Positions 1 through 42,537 of a DNA stretch of 42,537 nt are shown here, in pieces. The DNA comes from a virus, in the UHGV virus genome UHGV-0420230; one strand, given 5' to 3'. The first letter of the stretch is position 1, and the number at the start of each line of letters is the position of its first letter. Below the pieces are notes generated by a model. That model made no database searches, was not told where the DNA came from, and saw only the letters and a list, made by a program, of their open reading frames with translations. The translations under genes were made by a program, and so were the position numbers.

Positions 1-54
1 ATGTTTCTGATGCGATGAAAGTGGTGGATTCTGCCGTATCGGATGCCGCCAGGC
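1..54. repeat. 54-bp exact copy of 13173-13226 (internal to the DNA circulation gene)
   Basis: Base-by-base comparison: window 1-54 equals 13173-13226, diverging at 55 versus 13227. Confidence 0.9.
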
Positions 55-139
55 ACCATACGCCAGCAAAAGCACCCCCAGCCCGCCCCATCGTTTTTTT
101 ATACCCGCGAAAAATGAAATTTAACCAGGAGTGCCGCAT

Positions 140-634
140 ATGGCTGGAACGGCGGGGCGTTCCGGGCGTCGCCCCAAGCCAACGGCGCGCAAGGCGCTGG
201 CCGGAAACCCCGGCAAGCGAGCCCTGAATAAAGATGAACCTGTTTTTACGCCCATCAAAGGTGTTGAGCCACCGGAGTGGTTCGCTGAAGAAGATCTCCC
301 TCTCGCCACGATCATGTGGCAACTGACAACTAAAGAACTTTGCGGTCAGGGCCTGCTGTGCGTGACTGACCTCGCGGTGCTTGAGCGGTGGTGTGTGGCC
401 TATGAGTTCTGGCGACGTGCCGTGAAAAATATTGCCAGACAGGGCAACACCATCACCGGTGCAATGGGCGGTATGGTCAAAAATCCTGAGCTGACCGCCA
501 AAAAAGAACAGGAGTCCGAGATGAGCAGCACGGGGGCAATGCTCGGACTCGACCCCAGCAGCCGCCAGCGTCTGATTGGCCTGGCGGGGCAGAAGAAAGC
601 TACTAACCCGTTTCTGAAAATCATCGAATCATGA
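140..634 (+). CDS. terminase small subunit (P27-family-like)
   Basis: N-terminus [34 protein letters not shown] matches the P27-type small terminase signature; AGGAG at 127-131 precedes ATG at 140; stop overlaps the large subunit start (ATGA). The track start at 131 is a GTG overlapping the RBS. Confidence 0.8.
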
Positions 635-2364
635 GCCGGAAATCTTACCCCAACGTAAATGCTGCCAATCAGTATGCCCGGGATGTCGTTCGCGGAAAGA
701 TTGTGGCCTGCCAGTTTGTGATTCAGGCCTGCCAGCGCCATCTTGATGACCTGATGGCGGAAAAAAGTAAGTCGTTTCGTTACCGCTTCGACAAGGACCT
801 GGCTGAACGGGCCGCCAAATTTATTCAGCTGTTGCCGCACACCAAGGGTGAGTGGGCATTCAAGAGGATGCCCATCACGCTGGAGCCGTGGCAGCTCTTT
901 GTGATCTGCTGTGCGTTTGGCTGGGTCAATAAAGGCTCCCGGCTGCGCCGCTTCCGGGAGGTGTATACCGAAATCCCCCGTAAGAACGGCAAATCGGCAA
1001 TCTCTGCCGGTGTCGCCCTGTATTGTTTTGCCTGTGATAACGAGTTCGGCGCGGAAGTGTATTCCGGTGCCACGACGGAGAAACAGGCATGGGAAGTCTT
1101 TCGTCCGGCACGACTGATGTGTAAACGCACACCCATGCTGACGGAAGCGTTCGGGATTGAGGTTAACGCCTCAAACATGAACCGTCCGGAGGATGGTGCG
1201 CGTTTTGAACCGCTGATCGGTAACCCTGGTGATGGTTCATCACCCCACTGTGCGGTGGTGGATGAATATCACGAGCACGCCACCGATGCGCTTTATACCA
1301 CGATGCTTACCGGGATGGGGGCGCGACGTCAGCCACTGATGTGGGCCATCACCACCGCCGGGTACAACATTGAGGGGCCGTGCTACGACAAGCGGCGGGA
1401 AGTTATCGAGATGCTCAACGGTTCGGTACCCAACGATGAACTGTTCGGGATCATCTATACCGTTGATGAAGGTGACGACTGGACCGACCCGCAGGTGCTG
1501 GAAAAAGCCAATCCAAATATTGGCGTGTCGGTTTATCGCGAATTTTTGTTAAGTCAGCAGCAGCGTGCGAAAAATAACGCCCGTCTGGCAAACGTCTTTA
1601 AAACAAAACACCTCAATATCTGGGTGTCGGCACGTTCGGCGTATTTCAACCTGGTGAGCTGGCAGAGCTGCGAGGATAAATCACTGACCCTTGAGCAGTT
1701 CGAGGGGCAGCCGTGCATTCTGGCCTTTGACCTGGCGCGTAAGCTGGATATGAACAGCATGGCGCGACTTTATACCCGCGAGATTGACGGTAAAACGCAT
1801 TACTACAGTGTAGCCCCGCGTTTCTGGGTACCGTATGACACGGTGTACAGCGTCGAGAAAAATGAAGATCGCCGGACAGCCGAACGCTTTCAGAAATGGG
1901 TGGAAATGGGCGTCCTGACCGTTACCGATGGTGCAGAGGTGGATTATCGCTACATCCTCGAAGAGGCCAAAGCAGCGAACAAAATCAGCCCGGTCAGCGA
2001 GTCACCCATCGACCCCTTCGGGGCGACCGGGCTGTCACATGACCTTGCTGATGAAGACCTGAATCCCATCACCATCATTCAGAACTACACCAACATGTCC
2101 GACCCGATGAAAGAGCTGGAAGCGGCAATTGAATCGGGGCGCTTTCATCATGACGGCAATCCCATCATGACCTGGTGTATCGGCAACGTGGTCGGCAAAA
2201 CCATTCCGGGTAACGATGATGTGGTGAAGCCCGTCAAAGAGCAGGCGGAAAACAAAATCGATGGTGCAGTTGCGCTGATTATGGCGGTTGGCAGAGCCAT
2301 GCTGTATGAGAAAGAAGACACGCTGTCCGACCACATTGAGTCCTACGGGATCCGCTCGCTTTAA
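631..2364 (+). CDS. terminase large subunit
   Basis: 577 aa, immediately follows the small subunit, precedes portal; ATPase-like and nuclease-like regions consistent with a large terminase. Confidence 0.85.
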
Positions 2365-2375
2365 CTGAGGTAATT

Positions 2376-2558
2376 ATGATCATGCTGATTCTCGCGCCTC
2401 TGGTGGGCGTGCTGGGGGTGCTTTTGCTGGCGTATGGTGCCTGGCTGATTTATCCCCCGGCGGGGTTTGTTGTTGCCGGGGCGTTGTGCCTGTTCTGGTC
2501 GTGGCTGGTGGCGCGATATCTCGACCGTACACAGATGTCTGTTGGTGGAGGTAAATAG
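2376..2558 (+). CDS. small hydrophobic protein (hypothetical)
   Basis: 60-aa ORF, largely hydrophobic ([23 protein letters not shown]), packed between terminase and portal. Confidence 0.4.
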
Positions 2559-12598: not shown

Positions 12599-13972
12599 AT
12601 GGATTTTTCTCATATTTCTTCGTACCTATCCTCTGATTCTCGAAGTGGCTGGCGTGAAAAGCTACTTGAAGCATCATTTCGAGGTGTGCCGTTTAAGGTT
12701 GAAGAAGAAAGTGCGGGAACCGGTCGCCGTGTGGAAACACATGAATACCCGAACCGCGACAAGCCCTATACCGAAGATCTGGGAAAAGTCACTTTCCGCC
12801 CGTCCATCACAGCTTATGTGGTGGGAGATGACTGCTTTGACCAGCGCGATCGCCTGATTGAAGCGCTGAATAAACCCGGTCCCGGCACGCTTGTCCACCC
12901 GACATATGGTGAGCTGAAAGTCTGTGTTGACGGGGAAGTTCGGGTCAGCACATCGAAAAGTGAAGGGCGTATTGTCCGCTTTGACCTGAAGTTTGTCGAA
13001 GCAGGAGAACTCTCTTACCCCACATCAGGTGCGGCGACGGCGCAGACGCTGATGTCATCCTGTTCTGCACTGGATGACTGCATCAGTGACAGCTTCAGCG
13101 GTTTCAGTATCGATGGTGTGGCGGATTTCGTGCAGAACGACGTTATCGGTAATGCCAGCATAATGCTGGGGTATGTTTCTGATGCGATGAAAGTGGTGGA
13201 TTCTGCCGTATCGGATGCCGCCAGGCTGTTGCAGGGGGATATCTCGGTACTTCTGCAGCCGCCATCGTCAGGCAAAAATTTCGTTGAGCAGGTGCAGAAA
13301 ATGTGGCGTACCGGGAAACGCCTTTATGGTAACGCCAGCGACCTGGTCACCATGATCAAAACGCTTTCCGGTGTCAGCCTCGGCAGCGATCTGCAACCGC
13401 GCGGCGTCTGGAAAACGGACAGTAAAACCACCGCCACGGCGACGCAGCAGCGTAACGTGGTTGCCAGCACCCTTCGTACGACCGCAATCAGCGAAGCGGC
13501 GTATGCCGTCACCCGATTGCCTGCGCCAACAACTTCCGCGGTGATGCAGAATTCCGCAGTGGGGCAGGCAACAACACCTGCGCAGAGCACTGGCTGGCCT
13601 TCCGTCACGCATCCGGCACTGAACAATGCACCGGCGGTGAAAAACACGGTTGACCTGCCGACGTGGGAAGAACTGACTGACATTCGCGACACACTGAATA
13701 CGGCAATTGATAAGGAGTTGTCCCGTACAACCAGTGATGCGCTGTTTCTGGCGCTGCGCCGGGTGAAAGCAGATCTGAATGCGGATATCAACACGCGCCT
13801 TGAACAGTCTGCACGGATCATTCAGCGCACGCCGGATGAGGTTTTACCCGCGCTGGTGCTGGCGGCGACCTGGTTTGATAACGCGGCGCGTGACGCGGAC
13901 ATTATCCGGCGTAATGCCATTACGCATCCCGGCTTTGTGCCGGTGATCCCTCTGAAGGTGCCAGTGCAATGA
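12599..13972 (+). CDS. DNA circulation protein (Mu gp43-like)
   Basis: 457 aa in the conserved position after the tape measure in Mu-type tails. Confidence 0.75.
   Translation: MDFSHISSYLSSDSRSGWREKLLEASFRGVPFKVEEESAGTGRRVETHEYPNRDKPYTEDLGKVTFRPSITAYVVGDDCFDQRDRLIEALNKPGPGTLVHPTYGELKVCVDGEVRVSTSKSEGRIVRFDLKFVEAGELSYPTSGAATAQTLMSSCSALDDCISDSFSGFSIDGVADFVQNDVIGNASIMLGYVSDAMKVVDSAVSDAARLLQGDISVLLQPPSSGKNFVEQVQKMWRTGKRLYGNASDLVTMIKTLSGVSLGSDLQPRGVWKTDSKTTATATQQRNVVASTLRTTAISEAAYAVTRLPAPTTSAVMQNSAVGQATTPAQSTGWPSVTHPALNNAPAVKNTVDLPTWEELTDIRDTLNTAIDKELSRTTSDALFLALRRVKADLNADINTRLEQSARIIQRTPDEVLPALVLAATWFDNAARDADIIRRNAITHPGFVPVIPLKVPVQ
13173..13226. repeat. internal copy of the 54-bp sequence also found at 1-54
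   Basis: Exact identity to window 1-54. Confidence 0.9.
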
Positions 13973-29510: not shown

Positions 29511-29756
29511 ATGACTTTTGATGAAAAAGAACTTGATAATGCAATTAATAAAATCATCGTAACGTCGCTCTTTTCCTGTCTCAGCGACACTCAGCAGAAA
29601 CAGTTCTACGAATCGGCTTTCAACATGATCGAGCGTTGTTGTTTCTGCGATGCCGACGAGCTACCTGAAAAAATCAGGAAACAGTTGGCTGATGCTCTTC
29701 GAGTGCGACTTTCTGACCAATTTTCTGAAATGTACTCTCCGAATTTGGACAAATAG
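29511..29756 (+). CDS. hypothetical protein (plus-strand gene embedded in the leftward operon)
   Basis: 81 aa; AAGGA RBS 8 nt upstream; hairpin just after the stop. Confidence 0.45.
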   Translation: MTFDEKELDNAINKIIVTSLFSCLSDTQQKQFYESAFNMIERCCFCDADELPEKIRKQLADALRVRLSDQFSEMYSPNLDK

Positions 29757-29949
29757 AAAAAGGCCATTTCCATTCAGGGTCTGATGGAAATACTTCAGCC
29801 TGTTCCAAAGCACGGCGTAAAGAGAATACAACTCCAGCCATAATCTGATGTTTCCCATTGGTCCAGCTATCGCCGCTCTGATCTACAGGAGCGGCTATGT
29901 CGTATGACCAAACGACTTCACCACTATTGTTTAAAATCTGGACTTTCAT
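29674..29949 (-). pseudogene. duplicated 5' copy (first 59 codons) of the downstream zinc-finger gene with a different, possibly non-functional C-terminus
   Basis: Start, RBS and 59 codons lie within the 198-bp perfect repeat; the divergent C-terminal 32 codons overlap the convergent plus-strand ORF. Confidence 0.35.
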
Positions 29950-29970
29950 TTTGTTCTTTAACCTCCAGAT
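29773..29970. repeat. 198-bp perfect direct repeat, copy 1
   Basis: Identical to 30162-30359 (offset 389 bp), verified base by base. Confidence 0.9.
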
Positions 29971-30338
29971 TTCCGCGCATCTAAAGGCGCATTCTCATTT
30001 GGTGTGAACTGAATAGTTGTGCTGATATTGATTAATGCCTCGACACTCAAGACTACGCACTCAGAGCAGATAGCAACTTCATCTTTTCCGCCTTTGGCGA
30101 TGATTTTTTTTGCCTGCAGCTCGTTTGCGCCACAAAACGAGCATGTGAAATAACGGTTCATTTCAGGGTCTGATGGAAATACTTCAGCCTGTTCCAAAGC
30201 ACGGCGTAAAGAGAATACAACTCCAGCCATAATCTGATGTTTCCCATTGGTCCAGCTATCGCCGCTCTGATCTACAGGAGCGGCTATGTCGTATGACCAA
30301 ACGACTTCACCACTATTGTTTAAAATCTGGACTTTCAT
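29958..30338 (-). CDS. protein with C-terminal ClpX-type C4 zinc finger
   Basis: FTCSFCGANELQAKKIIAKGGKDEVAICSECV resembles the ClpX N-terminal zinc-binding domain; GGAGG RBS; first gene after pL. Confidence 0.65.
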   Translation of the reverse strand: MKVQILNNSGEVVWSYDIAAPVDQSGDSWTNGKHQIMAGVVFSLRRALEQAEVFPSDPEMNRYFTCSFCGANELQAKKIIAKGGKDEVAICSECVVLSVEALINISTTIQFTPNENAPLDARKSGG

Positions 30339-30359
30339 TTTGTTCTTTAACCTCCAGAT
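30162..30359. repeat. 198-bp perfect direct repeat, copy 2
   Basis: Identical to 29773-29970. Confidence 0.9.
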
Positions 30360-30456
30360 ACGGGCGTTTAATGGCCCCGCCGAACAGCTCTTTTCCGCAA
30401 TAGCTGCAATGTCTTTCGCGCATCAGCCTGCGCATTCACCACAACTCTAAAAACAA

Positions 30457-30509
30457 ATGTAGGATATCCAACATGTGAGTGTCAAGAGTTTATGTTGGTT
30501 ATCATACAT
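30457..30509 (-). promoter_or_regulatory. OL-type operator sites and leftward early promoter (pL-like)
   Basis: 18-bp palindromes ATGTAGGATATCCAACAT (30457-30474) and ATGTTGGTTATCATACAT (30492-30509); minus-strand TTGACA (plus 30480-30485) with 17-bp spacer. Confidence 0.55.
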
Positions 30510-30571: not shown

Positions 30572-31225
30572 TCAAAAATCCATTATTACTTGTTTGACAA
30601 GACCAACTATTCTGCAGTTCTCACCGCATTCAATAGTTTTATAGTTAGGATTTAGTGGGACGAGATACCTGTTCGGCCAGTCCTCAACAAATTTTTTGAG
30701 TGTCGCTTCTTGCCCACCATTGATATGGGCAACAACGATTTTTCCGTTAATACACTCTGTATCAATAATATCTGGCTCTACGATAACGATAGAACCTTCT
30801 GGTATCGATGGTGAGCCGAGGGGATTGGTCATTGAATCACCACGGACCCGTAGTGCAAATGCCATTTCTGATACAAGGGCGGTAGTATAAACCCACTCTT
30901 CAGCATCTTCTTTCCTGACACCAGGCTCCGTCATTGTCCATGAACCCGCCTGAACCCACGAGATGAGGGGGACTTTTTTAACTGCGAATATTTCAGGTTT
31001 TAGATTTATCTTTGGTTCAGGCGAGCCTTTTCCGCTAACAAGCCACAGAGGATCGCATTTAAGTGCGTTGGCTAGGGCTTGAAGGTTGGCTCCATTTGGT
31101 TGGTAGTCGTCCTTTTCCCATCCAGTAACCGTGACACGGTTCACACCAGTCAAATCAGCCAGTGCTTGTTGTGTCAGGTTCAGTTCTTTTCGCCTTTGGC
31201 GAATACGATCACTCATGTTCATCAT
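30572..31225 (-). CDS. CI-like repressor (HTH plus S24 LexA-like peptidase domain)
   Basis: N-terminal HTH (LTQQALADLTGVNRVTVTGWE); C-terminal RGDSM...K motif of self-cleaving repressors; divergent from the Cro-like gene. Confidence 0.85.
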   Translation of the reverse strand: MMNMSDRIRQRRKELNLTQQALADLTGVNRVTVTGWEKDDYQPNGANLQALANALKCDPLWLVSGKGSPEPKINLKPEIFAVKKVPLISWVQAGSWTMTEPGVRKEDAEEWVYTTALVSEMAFALRVRGDSMTNPLGSPSIPEGSIVIVEPDIIDTECINGKIVVAHINGGQEATLKKFVEDWPNRYLVPLNPNYKTIECGENCRIVGLVKQVIMDF

Positions 31226-31288
31226 GTAGGCAATCCTACCACATGCCCATGTAGGATTCTTGACATTGGTATGTTGGATATCCTACAT
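31224..31288 (+). promoter_or_regulatory. OR-type tripartite operator with rightward early promoter (pR-like)
   Basis: Three related palindromes at 31224-31241, 31248-31265 and 31271-31288 (the last exactly the reverse complement of OL1), spaced 23-24 bp; TTGACA 31260-31265. Confidence 0.6.
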
Positions 31289-31320
31289 TTCTGCTTAACG
31301 TAATTTAACGGGAGACAGAA

Positions 31321-39200: not shown

Positions 39201-39428
39201 ATGTTAACCAGAAGGGAAAAAGACATGCTAAAACAGCAAGATATGACAGAAACCGCCGCCGCAGTCCTTCATTTCTTACCTGCTGACAAGTGGGTAACGC
39301 CACGCATGATGACGAGAACTACCGGAGTAAGCGAAGCCCGGTGCCAGTTAATACTGACTCAGTTAGTTCTGGCGGGTCTGGCGAAGGATAACGGCGGGTA
39401 CGGGAATAAATTCAGACGCTGCCAGTAA
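39201..39428 (+). CDS. small winged-helix-like protein (hypothetical)
   Basis: 75-aa ORF downstream of the late terminator. Confidence 0.4.
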   Translation: MLTRREKDMLKQQDMTETAAAVLHFLPADKWVTPRMMTRTTGVSEARCQLILTQLVLAGLAKDNGGYGNKFRRCQ

Positions 39429-39578
39429 TGGCGGTTTCCTGCTGTGAAAATGGGCGGCTGGTGGGTGTTGGTAGCACCTGCCAGCCATTCGCTCATGCTT
39501 ACTGGTCACAAGCGAACCACGGCCCACTGCTTTAGCGCAAAAGCAGAGTGAGCCTACCAGAGTTACGCTTACTGATCC

Positions 39579-40631
39579 ATGAAAAATACTGTAAAAATAA
39601 ACAGTGTTGATTTAATCAACGCTGATTGCCTGCATTTTATTCAGTCCCTGCCTGATGATTCCATTGACCTGATTGTTACCGATCCGCCTTACTTCAAGGT
39701 GAAACCTAACGGTTGGGACAATCAGTGGAAAGGGGATGAAGATTACCTTAAGTGGCTGGACCACTGTCTGGCCCAGTTCTGGCGGGTGTTGAAACCTGCC
39801 GGAAGCCTTTACCTGTTCTGTGGGCATCGCCTAGCATCTGATATTGAGATCATGATGCGTGAACGTTTCAACGTGCTTAACCATATCATCTGGGCGAAGC
39901 CGTCCGGACGTTGGAATGGGTGTAATAAAGAAAGTCTGCGCGCATATTTTCCTGCCACAGAGCGCGTTCTGTTTGCTGAACATTACCAGGGGCCATATCG
40001 CGGCAAAAGTGACGGCTATGCGGCAAAAGAAAGGGAACTCAAACAGCACATAATGGCACCGCTGATATCGTATTTCAGGGATGCTCGTGCCGAACTGGGT
40101 ATAACGGCAAAACAAATTGCCGAAGCCACAGGTAAGAAAAATATGGTTTCCCACTGGTTTGGTGCCAGTCAGTGGCAGTTGCCGAATGAGGCTGACTATC
40201 GGAAGTTACAGGCACTGTTTTCCCGTATAGCGGCAGAGAAGTTTCAGGAACAACAACTGGAACAACCACACCACCAGCTGGTGGCATCTTATGATTCACT
40301 GAATCGTAAATATTCTGAATTGCTGGATGAGTTTAAATCTCTCCGGCGCTATTTCTCCGTATCAGTCTCCGTGCCTTATACCGATGTCTGGATGCATAAA
40401 CCCGTTCAGTTCTACCCGGGGAAACATCCGTGTGAGAAACCGGCGGATATGCTCAGGCAAATAATCAATGCCAGTAGTCGACCAGGTGATCTGGTTGCTG
40501 ATTTTTTTATGGGATCCGGTTCCACAATAAAAGCAGCAATGGCGCTGGGGCGTCGGGCCTTAGGTGTTGAGCTTGAGTCAGAGCGGTTTAATCAGACAGT
40601 GAAAGAGATAAACGAGCTGGTGGGGAAATAA
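39579..40631 (+). CDS. DNA methyltransferase (N6/N4 type, DPPY motif), late-expressed orphan
   Basis: IVTDPPYF motif near the N-terminus and C-terminal AdoMet-binding region (DFFMGSGST); no adjacent restriction gene. Confidence 0.8.
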   Translation: MKNTVKINSVDLINADCLHFIQSLPDDSIDLIVTDPPYFKVKPNGWDNQWKGDEDYLKWLDHCLAQFWRVLKPAGSLYLFCGHRLASDIEIMMRERFNVLNHIIWAKPSGRWNGCNKESLRAYFPATERVLFAEHYQGPYRGKSDGYAAKERELKQHIMAPLISYFRDARAELGITAKQIAEATGKKNMVSHWFGASQWQLPNEADYRKLQALFSRIAAEKFQEQQLEQPHHQLVASYDSLNRKYSELLDEFKSLRRYFSVSVSVPYTDVWMHKPVQFYPGKHPCEKPADMLRQIINASSRPGDLVADFFMGSGSTIKAAMALGRRALGVELESERFNQTVKEINELVGK

Positions 40632-40635
40632 TCTG

Positions 40636-40662
40636 GTGGCCACGTTGCGTGGCCTTTTTATT
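40636..40662 (+). terminator. rho-independent terminator
   Basis: Hairpin GGCCACG-TTG-CGTGGCC followed by a T-run. Confidence 0.65.
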
Positions 40663-40691
40663 TCCAACACAGCACCCGCAAATATCGCGAG

Positions 40692-41033
40692 GTGAGAGAT
40701 GACGAAATGCCTCATAACCCAAATACCTGGCTGGACTTGGTCCAGAGCTGGTGGCGTGGAGACACACCGCTGGGTGCAGTGATTATGTCGATCGTTATGG
40801 CTGGTTTGCGCATCGCCTATTTTGGCGGTGGTGGTGGCTGGAAGCGAAAAACGCTCGAGATTTTGCTATGTGGCGCTCTGACGCTGACCTTTGCATCCGC
40901 TCTTGAATATGTCGGATGGCCTAAATCGCTTTCTGTTGCCATTGGTGGTGGCGTGGGGCTGATCGGTGTCGATGCTATTCGTGGGGCTGCAATGCGAGTA
41001 ATCGGTAACAAATTTGGTAGCTCGAAGGAGTAA
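40692..41033 (+). CDS. holin (lambda S-like family)
   Basis: Pattern LRIAYFGGGG...LLCGALTLTFASALEYVG and basic C-terminus resemble lambda S; GTG at 40692 and ATG at 40707 give possible dual starts. Confidence 0.7.
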   Translation: MRDDEMPHNPNTWLDLVQSWWRGDTPLGAVIMSIVMAGLRIAYFGGGGGWKRKTLEILLCGALTLTFASALEYVGWPKSLSVAIGGGVGLIGVDAIRGAAMRVIGNKFGSSKE

Positions 41034-41036
41034 TTT

Positions 41037-41513
41037 ATGCAGGCACTAAATTCCCAGCGTAAAGCTTTCCTGGATATGGTGGCATGGTCAGAAGGAACGG
41101 ATAACGGGCGACAACCGACACGTAACCACGGTTATGATGTTATTGTTGGTGGCGAACTGTTCACTGATTACTCCGATCACCCTCGCAAACTTGTCACGCT
41201 AAACCCCAAACTCAAATCAACAGCCGCCGGACGTTACCAGCTTCTTTCACGCTGGTGGGATGCTTACCGTAAACAGCTTGGCCTGAAAGATTTTTCTCCA
41301 GAAAGCCAGGACGCTGTAGCTCTGCAGCAGATTAAAGAGCGTGGTGCTTTACCGATGATTGATCGCGGTGATATCCGTCAGGCTATCGATCGTTGCAGCA
41401 ATCTCTGGGCTTCACTGCCGGGCGCAGGTTACGGTCAGTATGAACATAAAATCGGTGACCTGATTGCCCGATTTAAAGAGGCTGGTGGGGTGGTAAATGA
41501 AGTTGAGTTATAA
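41037..41513 (+). CDS. R: endolysin, lambda R-like lytic transglycosylase
   Basis: 158 aa, near-identical over most of its length to lambda R as recalled (QRKAFLDMVAWSEGTDNGRQ...); AAGGAG RBS. Confidence 0.9.
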   Translation: MQALNSQRKAFLDMVAWSEGTDNGRQPTRNHGYDVIVGGELFTDYSDHPRKLVTLNPKLKSTAAGRYQLLSRWWDAYRKQLGLKDFSPESQDAVALQQIKERGALPMIDRGDIRQAIDRCSNLWASLPGAGYGQYEHKIGDLIARFKEAGGVVNEVEL

Positions 41514-41889
41514 GCTGATTATCGCTGCTTTTTTCGTTACTGCCATTGGTTCTTTCATCTGGTCAGCCAACTACTACTACAGCAAATATCAGTACGAAAA
41601 GAAACGTGCTGATGAGGCTGTACAAAATGCTGAATCAGCAACTGCCATTACCCGTAATGTTCTGCAATCACTGCAAATCATCAATACAGTTATAGAGGCT
41701 AACCAGCATGCAAAACAGCAGATCGCACTGGAGTCACAGAGAACCGAGGAAGATATCAAAGTGGCTGTTGCGGATGATGATTGTGCTTCACGTCATGTGC
41801 CTGCTGCCGCTGCTGACCGGTTGCGGAAGTACGCGAACAGTTTACGTACCGATTCCGGCGGTACCGTTGCCAGCAAGCCTGACTACTGA
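41497..41889 (+). CDS. i-spanin (Rz-like)
   Basis: N-terminal transmembrane helix (LIIAAFFVTAIGSFIWS), coiled-coil body; overlaps the endolysin stop. Confidence 0.7.
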   Translation: MKLSYKLIIAAFFVTAIGSFIWSANYYYSKYQYEKKRADEAVQNAESATAITRNVLQSLQIINTVIEANQHAKQQIALESQRTEEDIKVAVADDDCASRHVPAAAADRLRKYANSLRTDSGGTVASKPDY

Positions 41890-42046
41890 AACTCCCCAGC
41901 CAGTCATTCCCGAGCCGCTGACCTATGGGGCCAGTCTGGATCTGAATGTGAGCCTGCTTTCGGCGTTGGGACAATGCAATATTGACAAAGCGGGGATTCG
42001 AAGTATCGAGATGCGCCGTAACGCTTTGTTGGCAGCAGGCAAATAG
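41774..42046 (+). CDS. o-spanin (Rz1-like lipoprotein)
   Basis: +1 frame relative to Rz; lipobox LLTGC after a hydrophobic leader; proline-rich mature part; extends beyond the Rz stop. Confidence 0.55.
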   Translation: MMIVLHVMCLLPLLTGCGSTRTVYVPIPAVPLPASLTTETPQPVIPEPLTYGASLDLNVSLLSALGQCNIDKAGIRSIEMRRNALLAAGK

Positions 42047-42072
42047 TCCGGACAAAGAACAGGAATATATTT

Positions 42073-42423
42073 ATGCCCCCACGAACCCCAAAAGCCTGCC
42101 GCGTTCGCGGCTGCCGCCATACCACCACTGACTCGTCAGGCTATTGTGAAAGCCACAAAAGCGAAGGCTGGACGCAATATAAGCCAGGTCAGTCCCGTCA
42201 CCAGCGCGGTTATGGTTCGAAGTGGGACGTTATCCGCGCGCGTGTGCTGAAGCGTGACAAAGGCCTGTGCCAGTTGTGCCTGCGTGCCGGTGTGGTACGT
42301 GAGGCGAAAACCGTTGACCACATCATCCCTAAAGCGCATGGCGGCACAGATGCCGACAGCAATCTGCAGAGCCTGTGCTGGCCGTGCCATAAGGCGAAGA
42401 CGGCCCGTGAACGGCTAAAGTGA
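42073..42423 (+). CDS. HNH endonuclease
   Basis: CxxC ... DHIIPKAHGG ... CWPCHKAK HNH motifs; at the genome right end, where HNH genes partner with terminases in cos phages. Confidence 0.85.
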   Translation: MPPRTPKACRVRGCRHTTTDSSGYCESHKSEGWTQYKPGQSRHQRGYGSKWDVIRARVLKRDKGLCQLCLRAGVVREAKTVDHIIPKAHGGTDADSNLQSLCWPCHKAKTARERLK

Positions 42424-42537
42424 TAATAATTCTCAACTGTCTGAGGGGAGGGGCGGGTCAAATCCCTGTGACCTGACGTCTTCCGGAGAAATAGCGCCGG
42501 AGAGATTTAAACTCATCCAGCAATTCAGAATATTTAC

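Follow-up and report, generated by a model that had tools for sequence, protein, structure and literature searches.

The DNA that we analyzed, referred to below as the window, is a stretch of 42,537 nucleotides from UHGV virus genome UHGV-0420230. It represents a complete linear contig from an SfV/SfI-like cos phage, and both of its ends lie at the cohesive-end site. The window is as long as a complete genome of the SfV/SfI-like group, and its gene order runs from the small terminase, which comes first, to an HNH endonuclease, which comes last, as in linear records of the same cos-packaging group. The window ends share 97-98% DNA identity with the Shigella and E. coli phages SfV, SfII, SfIV, and SfI, with ST64B being more distant, and the best match for the first 1,200 bases among public phage records was 98.5% identical and covered positions 135-1200. 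As in a phage of the SfV/SfI type, the site is flanked by a P27-family small terminase and a large terminase on one side and by an HNH gene on the other. According to PMC3592412, an HNH gene normally adjoins cos and the terminase genes in many phages. Pfam matches uphold the calls of a tail-module gene, an HNH gene, and a small terminase that an earlier note on this DNA had made, and its assignment of the region to cos agrees with the HNH and terminase flanks, with the presence of GCCCGCCCC at positions 81-89, and with the match to the cos site of SfI. The features of the two ends, and the internal loci from which parts of them are copied, are listed in Table 1.

Table 1. Features at the two ends of the window and the internal loci copied there; positions are those of the window.
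Feature	Position	Strand	Basis
DNA circularization gene piece, left-end terminal copy	1..54	+	Self-comparison; end of k=55 unitig in simulation
Second misplaced fragment	48..88	-	Self-comparison of window ends
GCCCGCCCC, 9/10 bases of the cohesive end TGCCCGCCCC; true left arm start	81..89	+	Alignments of relatives; SfI cos; SfI/SfV record ends
Small terminase	131-634	+	Pfam Terminase_4, TerL_ATPase, and TerL_nuclease matches, listed jointly for 131..2364
Large terminase	631-2364	+	Pfam Terminase_4, TerL_ATPase, and TerL_nuclease matches, listed jointly for 131..2364
Native source of the second fragment, in small ORF 2376-2558, located between the genes for the large terminase and the portal	2405..2445	+	Orthologue annotated ymfR in E. 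coli prophages
Native source of the left-end copy, in DNA circularization protein ORF 12599-13972	13173..13226	+	Pfam DNA_circ_N, E=1e-33
Native source of the right-end copy, in DNA methyltransferase ORF 39579-40631	40306..40359	+	Pfam N6_N4_Mtase, E=2e-42
HNH endonuclease beside cos	42073..42423	+	Pfam HNH, E=2e-16; same annotation in relatives
True right arm, last bases ...GACCTGACGTCTTCCGGA; in relatives followed by C and TGCCCGCCCC	42470..42487	+	Alignments to relatives
Methyltransferase piece, right-end terminal copy	42484..42537	-	Self-comparison; end of k=55 unitig in simulation

The cohesive-end site of SfI is known from experiment: run-off sequencing of its virion DNA revealed a 10-nt gap relative to the prophage, TGCCCGCCCC (PMC3636060). 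The SfI record ends in ...TTCCGGACTGCCCGCCCC, and the SfV record starts with TCCGGACTGCCCGCCCCATCG and ends in ...GACGTCT. In relatives of the window, only two bases lie between the equivalents of positions 42487 and 81, and the junction reads ...GACGTCTTCCGGAC, followed by TGCCCGCCCC, followed by ATCG.... We found this joint, ...GACGTCTTCCGGA-CT-GCCCGCCCCATCG..., in ON470603, in ON470584, and in the prophages of E. coli APEC37 and 730V1. Relative to these sequences, the window carries 130 extra bases (42488-42537 plus 1-80), and two bases are missing between ...TTCCGGA and GCCCGCCCC, namely the C of the final base pair in the right duplex end and the T with which the overhang begins. Base 80 is an A here and a T in the relatives. 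Since the relatives join 42487 to 81 by two bases and TGCCCGCCCC is the cohesive end of SfI, the extra 130 bases sit exactly on the cos cut. The 10-nt cohesive end itself is still recognizable from GCCCGCCCC and its conserved flanks, with its first base and the preceding C replaced by chimeric sequence.

As the query for a search of 5,426 complete E. coli genomes, we joined the last 400 bases of the window to its first 400 (800 bp). A place covering at least 80% of this query was present in 1,049 genomes, the maximum coverage was 84%, and the best places listed all spanned 672 bp (= 800-128). Given these 672-bp spans and the CT joint of the relatives, 42488-42537 and 1-80 are extra and two genuine bases have been lost. 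The 130 extra bases were found in 0 of the 5,426 complete E. coli genomes. Searches with one chimeric junction string per collection likewise returned zero matches in viral, genome, and metagenome contig collections.

Comparison of the window with itself traced the extra bases to other parts of the same genome. Positions 1-54 (ATGTTTCTGATGCGATGAAAGTGGTGGATTCTGCCGTATCGGATGCCGCCAGGC) are identical to 13173-13226 in the same orientation (54/54), and the identity ends where base 55 is an A and base 13227 is a T; the left copy is thus exactly 54 bp long and flush with base 1. In 42.5 kb, about 6e-24 exact 54-mer pairs would be expected by chance. The exact match to an internal segment of the DNA circulation gene that the earlier note reported, and its length of 54, are therefore confirmed. 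The note had the sequence pass after position 54 into the region upstream of the small terminase; the divergence between positions 54 and 55 is real, but the entry is not direct, as 48-88 is a second misplaced fragment and genuine sequence begins at 81. This second fragment is the reverse complement of 2405-2445 (41 bp) with one mismatch, at base 83, and positions 48-82 are exact (35/35). At the other end, the last 54 bases, 42484-42537, are the exact reverse complement of 40306-40359 (54/54). The misplaced pieces total three, one of which had been seen before. The block 39400-42487 is collinear and in one piece in many E. coli prophages.

One predicted gene is affected by this leader. A 70-aa ORF with an ATG start (15-227, plus strand) begins in the misplaced 54-bp fragment and crosses both chimeric junctions into the small-terminase region, and it had no Pfam match. 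This ORF is spurious, a product of the chimeric leader; automatic annotation is likely to label it a hypothetical protein, and it should be disregarded.

The length of the terminal copies is informative in itself. In a de Bruijn graph with k=55, the edges are 55 bases and the vertices 54 bases long. Counted from its divergence point to the end of the contig, each terminal copy is exactly 54 bp long. As in a contig-end artifact of such a graph, the copies lie flush with the contig ends, have the same length, k-1, at each end, and are 100% identical as 54-mers to other loci of the same assembly; the segment is absent at the same position in relatives, and the junction strings are absent in the three collections. 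The terminal copies share no 55-mers with the internal loci, and the first and last 54-mers are the only repeated ones in the window besides those of an unrelated 198-bp repeat at 29773/30162. We then performed a k=55 simulation on the genome implied by the relatives (81-42487) together with two hypothetical chimeric molecules, which reach 526 bp (left) and 459 bp (right) into the internal loci. The unitigs that contained the genome arms stopped exactly at positions 1 and 42537, and within this model a single parameter, k=55, accounts for both ends.

The same length bears on the type of assembler. SPAdes, the most common assembler for phages, overlaps contigs by k, and Velvet- or ABySS-type assemblers overlap them by k-1. 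We rejected SPAdes at k=55 as the source, given that its usual convention leads to an overlap of 55 (k) and we observed 54. The length of 54 suggests an assembler with the k-1 convention (Velvet or ABySS type) at k=55. The contig also traverses the 198-bp exact repeat, so the assembly involved some form of repeat resolution that a plain k=55 graph does not provide. It is known that assemblers can leave artificial overlaps one k-mer long at the ends of phage genomes, for example 127 bp with SPAdes (PMC5923482). When we searched the literature for a terminal chimera of precisely this type, what we found was limited to general remarks about assembly artifacts.

All three junctions display short stretches of shared sequence. 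The first and second fragments overlap by GCCAGGC (48-54), the second fragment and the true left arm by GC (81-82) or, imperfectly, by GCCCGCCC (81-88), and the true right arm and the methylase fragment by CGGA (42484-42487). Exact microhomology therefore amounts to 2-7 bp per junction, where a random blunt join would share at least 4 bases with a chance of 0.016 and at least 7 bases with a chance of 0.0004. Junctions of this kind are commonly left by polymerase template switching or by microhomology-mediated joining, and template-switch chimeras at microhomology are known from both amplification-based and ligation-based libraries. At base 83, the sole mismatch between the ymfR fragment and cos, the window has the cos base, which fits a cos terminus acting as primer and an internal locus acting as template. 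The two ends are asymmetric: the left arm retains 9 of the 10 overhang bases, and the right arm is without the overhang and one further base. A single simple mechanism in library preparation does not obviously explain this asymmetry.

We conclude that the extra DNA is very probably an artifact, produced by chimeric reads and the assembler at the physical ends of the genome, and not part of the phage genome. A chimeric join or assembly artifact was one of the options in the earlier note, and it is the option that the evidence favors: we directly observe misplaced copies at defined coordinates, two of them 54-bp copies of internal sequence, their position on the cos cut, their absence in relatives and collections, and the fit of the k=55 model. 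The existence of chimeric reads, the way in which they formed, and the type of assembler involved are our inferences from these observations. A few chimeric library molecules would have tied the physical genome ends to internal phage DNA. On the left, the 3' cohesive end would have annealed imperfectly to 2405-2412, been extended along the ymfR-like locus to 2445, and undergone a second template switch via GCCTGGC onto 13226 to 13173. Because the middle fragment is shorter than k, both left-end junctions would have been carried on single molecules. On the right, a trimmed or run-off 3' end, ...TTCCGGA, one base short of the duplex end, would have switched via CGGA and been extended along the bottom strand from 40359 to 40306. 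A k=55 assembler would then have followed the chimeric k-mers outward from the genome ends, where a competing path was absent, and halted at the first vertex common to the main genome path, leaving k-1 = 54 internal bases at each contig end. If this is correct, read depth should be low across 40-95 and 42480-42500.

It is also conceivable that the chimeras were real products of infected cells, in which microhomology-mediated template switching or alternative end joining extended the ends of linear phage DNA or joined them to sister genomes, and that they were co-purified and then cut at 54 bp by the assembler. Microhomology at three of three junctions and two successive switches within 35 bp are consistent with such an origin, and the left junction retains 3' overhang sequence, as would fit a free cohesive end acting as primer. 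We nevertheless consider this unlikely, as chimeras that form in vitro are frequent and require no further assumption, and as molecules with a disrupted cos site are not expected to be packaged and would be rare in virion DNA. Whether the chimeras formed in the cell or in the library, the extra DNA is outside the packaged genome. Very unlikely, in our view, is the proposal that the terminal chimeras record in-vivo events in which microhomologies of 2-8 nt allow free 3' cohesive ends to invade sister genomes and to be extended there through a series of template switches; if it were true, short-read assemblies of cos phages would hold a footprint of microhomology-mediated, replication-based end repair.

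When the window end and start are joined, they form a continuous 130-bp block with collinear flanks, which is what would be seen if a mosaic insertion made of the phage's own methylase, DNA circularization, and ymfR pieces lay between the HNH and small terminase genes and the circle had been opened mid-insertion. For this to hold, the point at which the circle was opened would have to lie, by chance, exactly 54 bp away from each of the two divergence points. Such an insertion would moreover replace the CT across the duplex/overhang boundary (GGAC followed by TGCCCGCCCC), deleting the initial base of the overhang together with the one that precedes it, and its 130 bp would part the right arm from the remaining overhang sequence. 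The search of the 5,426 E. coli genomes yielded no such insertion, the junction strings were absent from the three contig collections, and an insertion or moron at cos is also absent from the phage relatives; we regard a genuine insertion as highly improbable.

The earlier note also raised a longer repeat extending beyond the edge of the window. The match does begin at base 1, with its outer limit out of view, and 1-54 might be taken for the part in view of a longer repeat, such as a terminal redundancy or a tail-gene segment that has been duplicated. This is hardly credible given that the window starts on one side of a cos site and ends on its other side, and that it has whole-genome length for its phage group. 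The left end copies 13173-13226, and the other end holds a different 54-bp fragment, inverted (the reverse complement of 40306-40359), so a direct terminal repeat is absent, and the self-comparison gave no repeat connecting the two ends; the relatives, for their part, have a 10-nt cohesive end and not terminal redundancy. Finally, there is next to no chance that the 54 bp are a recombination scar or a remnant from a related phage, as the note had also suggested: the DNA circularization genes of relatives do hold the same 54 bp (with one occurrence in the orthologous gene of prophages L005 and L006), but all three fragments are identical to the window's own loci (54/54, 54/54, and 35/35 exact), the 730V1 prophage fits two of them less well (92.7% for ymfR and exact over only 52/54 bases for the methylase), and none is present at cos in any relative.

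Other repeats were found inside the window. The early region contains a 198-bp exact direct repeat (203 bp at 99%) at 29773-29970 and 30162-30359, with a spacing of 389 bp, which overlaps small minus-strand ORFs at 29674-29949 and 29958-30338. The region of this repeat is present in 30 complete E. coli genomes, in the best-matching of which the 851 query bases align in 3-4 pieces over an even longer span, 1,192 bp, and in the APEC37 prophage the two repeat copies are collapsed into one. We rejected the possibility that this repeat is a like artifact, as the same repeated arrangement occurs in natural E. coli prophages, and it looks like a genuine repeat of variable copy number. A 40-bp inverted repeat (30448-30487 and 31258-31297, 83% complementary) flanks a minus-strand ORF at 30572-31225, and in related prophages the gene at this position is a repressor-like gene of the LexA/XRE family. 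The two arms of this repeat could be operator or promoter regions on either side of the immunity gene.

Two public records of relatives are also of note. ON470584.1, a partial-genome record, has a run of approximately 30 N between cos, which it directly follows, and the small terminase, which is a further sign that the cos region is hard to assemble from virion DNA. The record of Salmonella phage 118970_sal3 (KU927493.2 / NC_031940.1) is 77,375 bp long, approximately twice the length of its relatives, with terminase genes at approximately 37.9 kb and an HNH gene at the far end; it may consist of two genomes joined.

The extra DNA at the window ends is a feature of the record and not of the phage, and the concern that it raises is one of data quality and not of biology. 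The record can be corrected by trimming 1-80 and 42488-42537 and restoring the cos junction, ...TTCCGGACTGCCCGCCCCATCG.... If they are left uncorrected, these ends would mislead on packaging type, on terminal repeats, on recombination between tail and packaging regions, and on inverted repeats near the lysis genes. At the same time, the points at which the artifact starts locate the cohesive-end site with a precision of a few bases and agree with the experimental SfI site. The test applied here, a search for internal loci that match the first and the last k-1 bases of a contig exactly, can be reused on other records.

Among known systems, the site itself most resembles the cohesive-end site of SfI and SfV, with near-identical flanks (right arm ...GACGTCTTCCGGA, left arm GCCCGCCCCATCGTTTTTTT) and the order of HNH, cos, small terminase, and large terminase common to both; this record differs in that its duplex/overhang boundary is without the C and T and 130 extra bases are divided between its two ends. 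Direct terminal repeats and the variable host-DNA ends of Mu-type phages are similar in that extra sequence lies at the ends of a linear phage record, but here the two ends differ from each other, the extra DNA is phage-internal and not host DNA, and the packaging genes and site are of the cos type. The terminal copies are akin to the k-mer overlap artifact in being exact copies of other contig sequence, at a contig end and of a length set by k, that need trimming prior to submission. In circular or terminally redundant genomes, that artifact makes the ends copy each other, whereas here each end copies a different internal locus; one copy is direct and one inverted, both are reached via chimeric junctions, and their length is k-1 = 54 and not k. 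The junctions, in turn, resemble those of library chimeras, which connect unrelated parts of one genome, in either orientation, at 2-7 bp of exact shared sequence, with multiple switches per molecule. Unlike library chimeras in general, those that survived here are anchored at the physical cos ends, where the graph is without a competing path.
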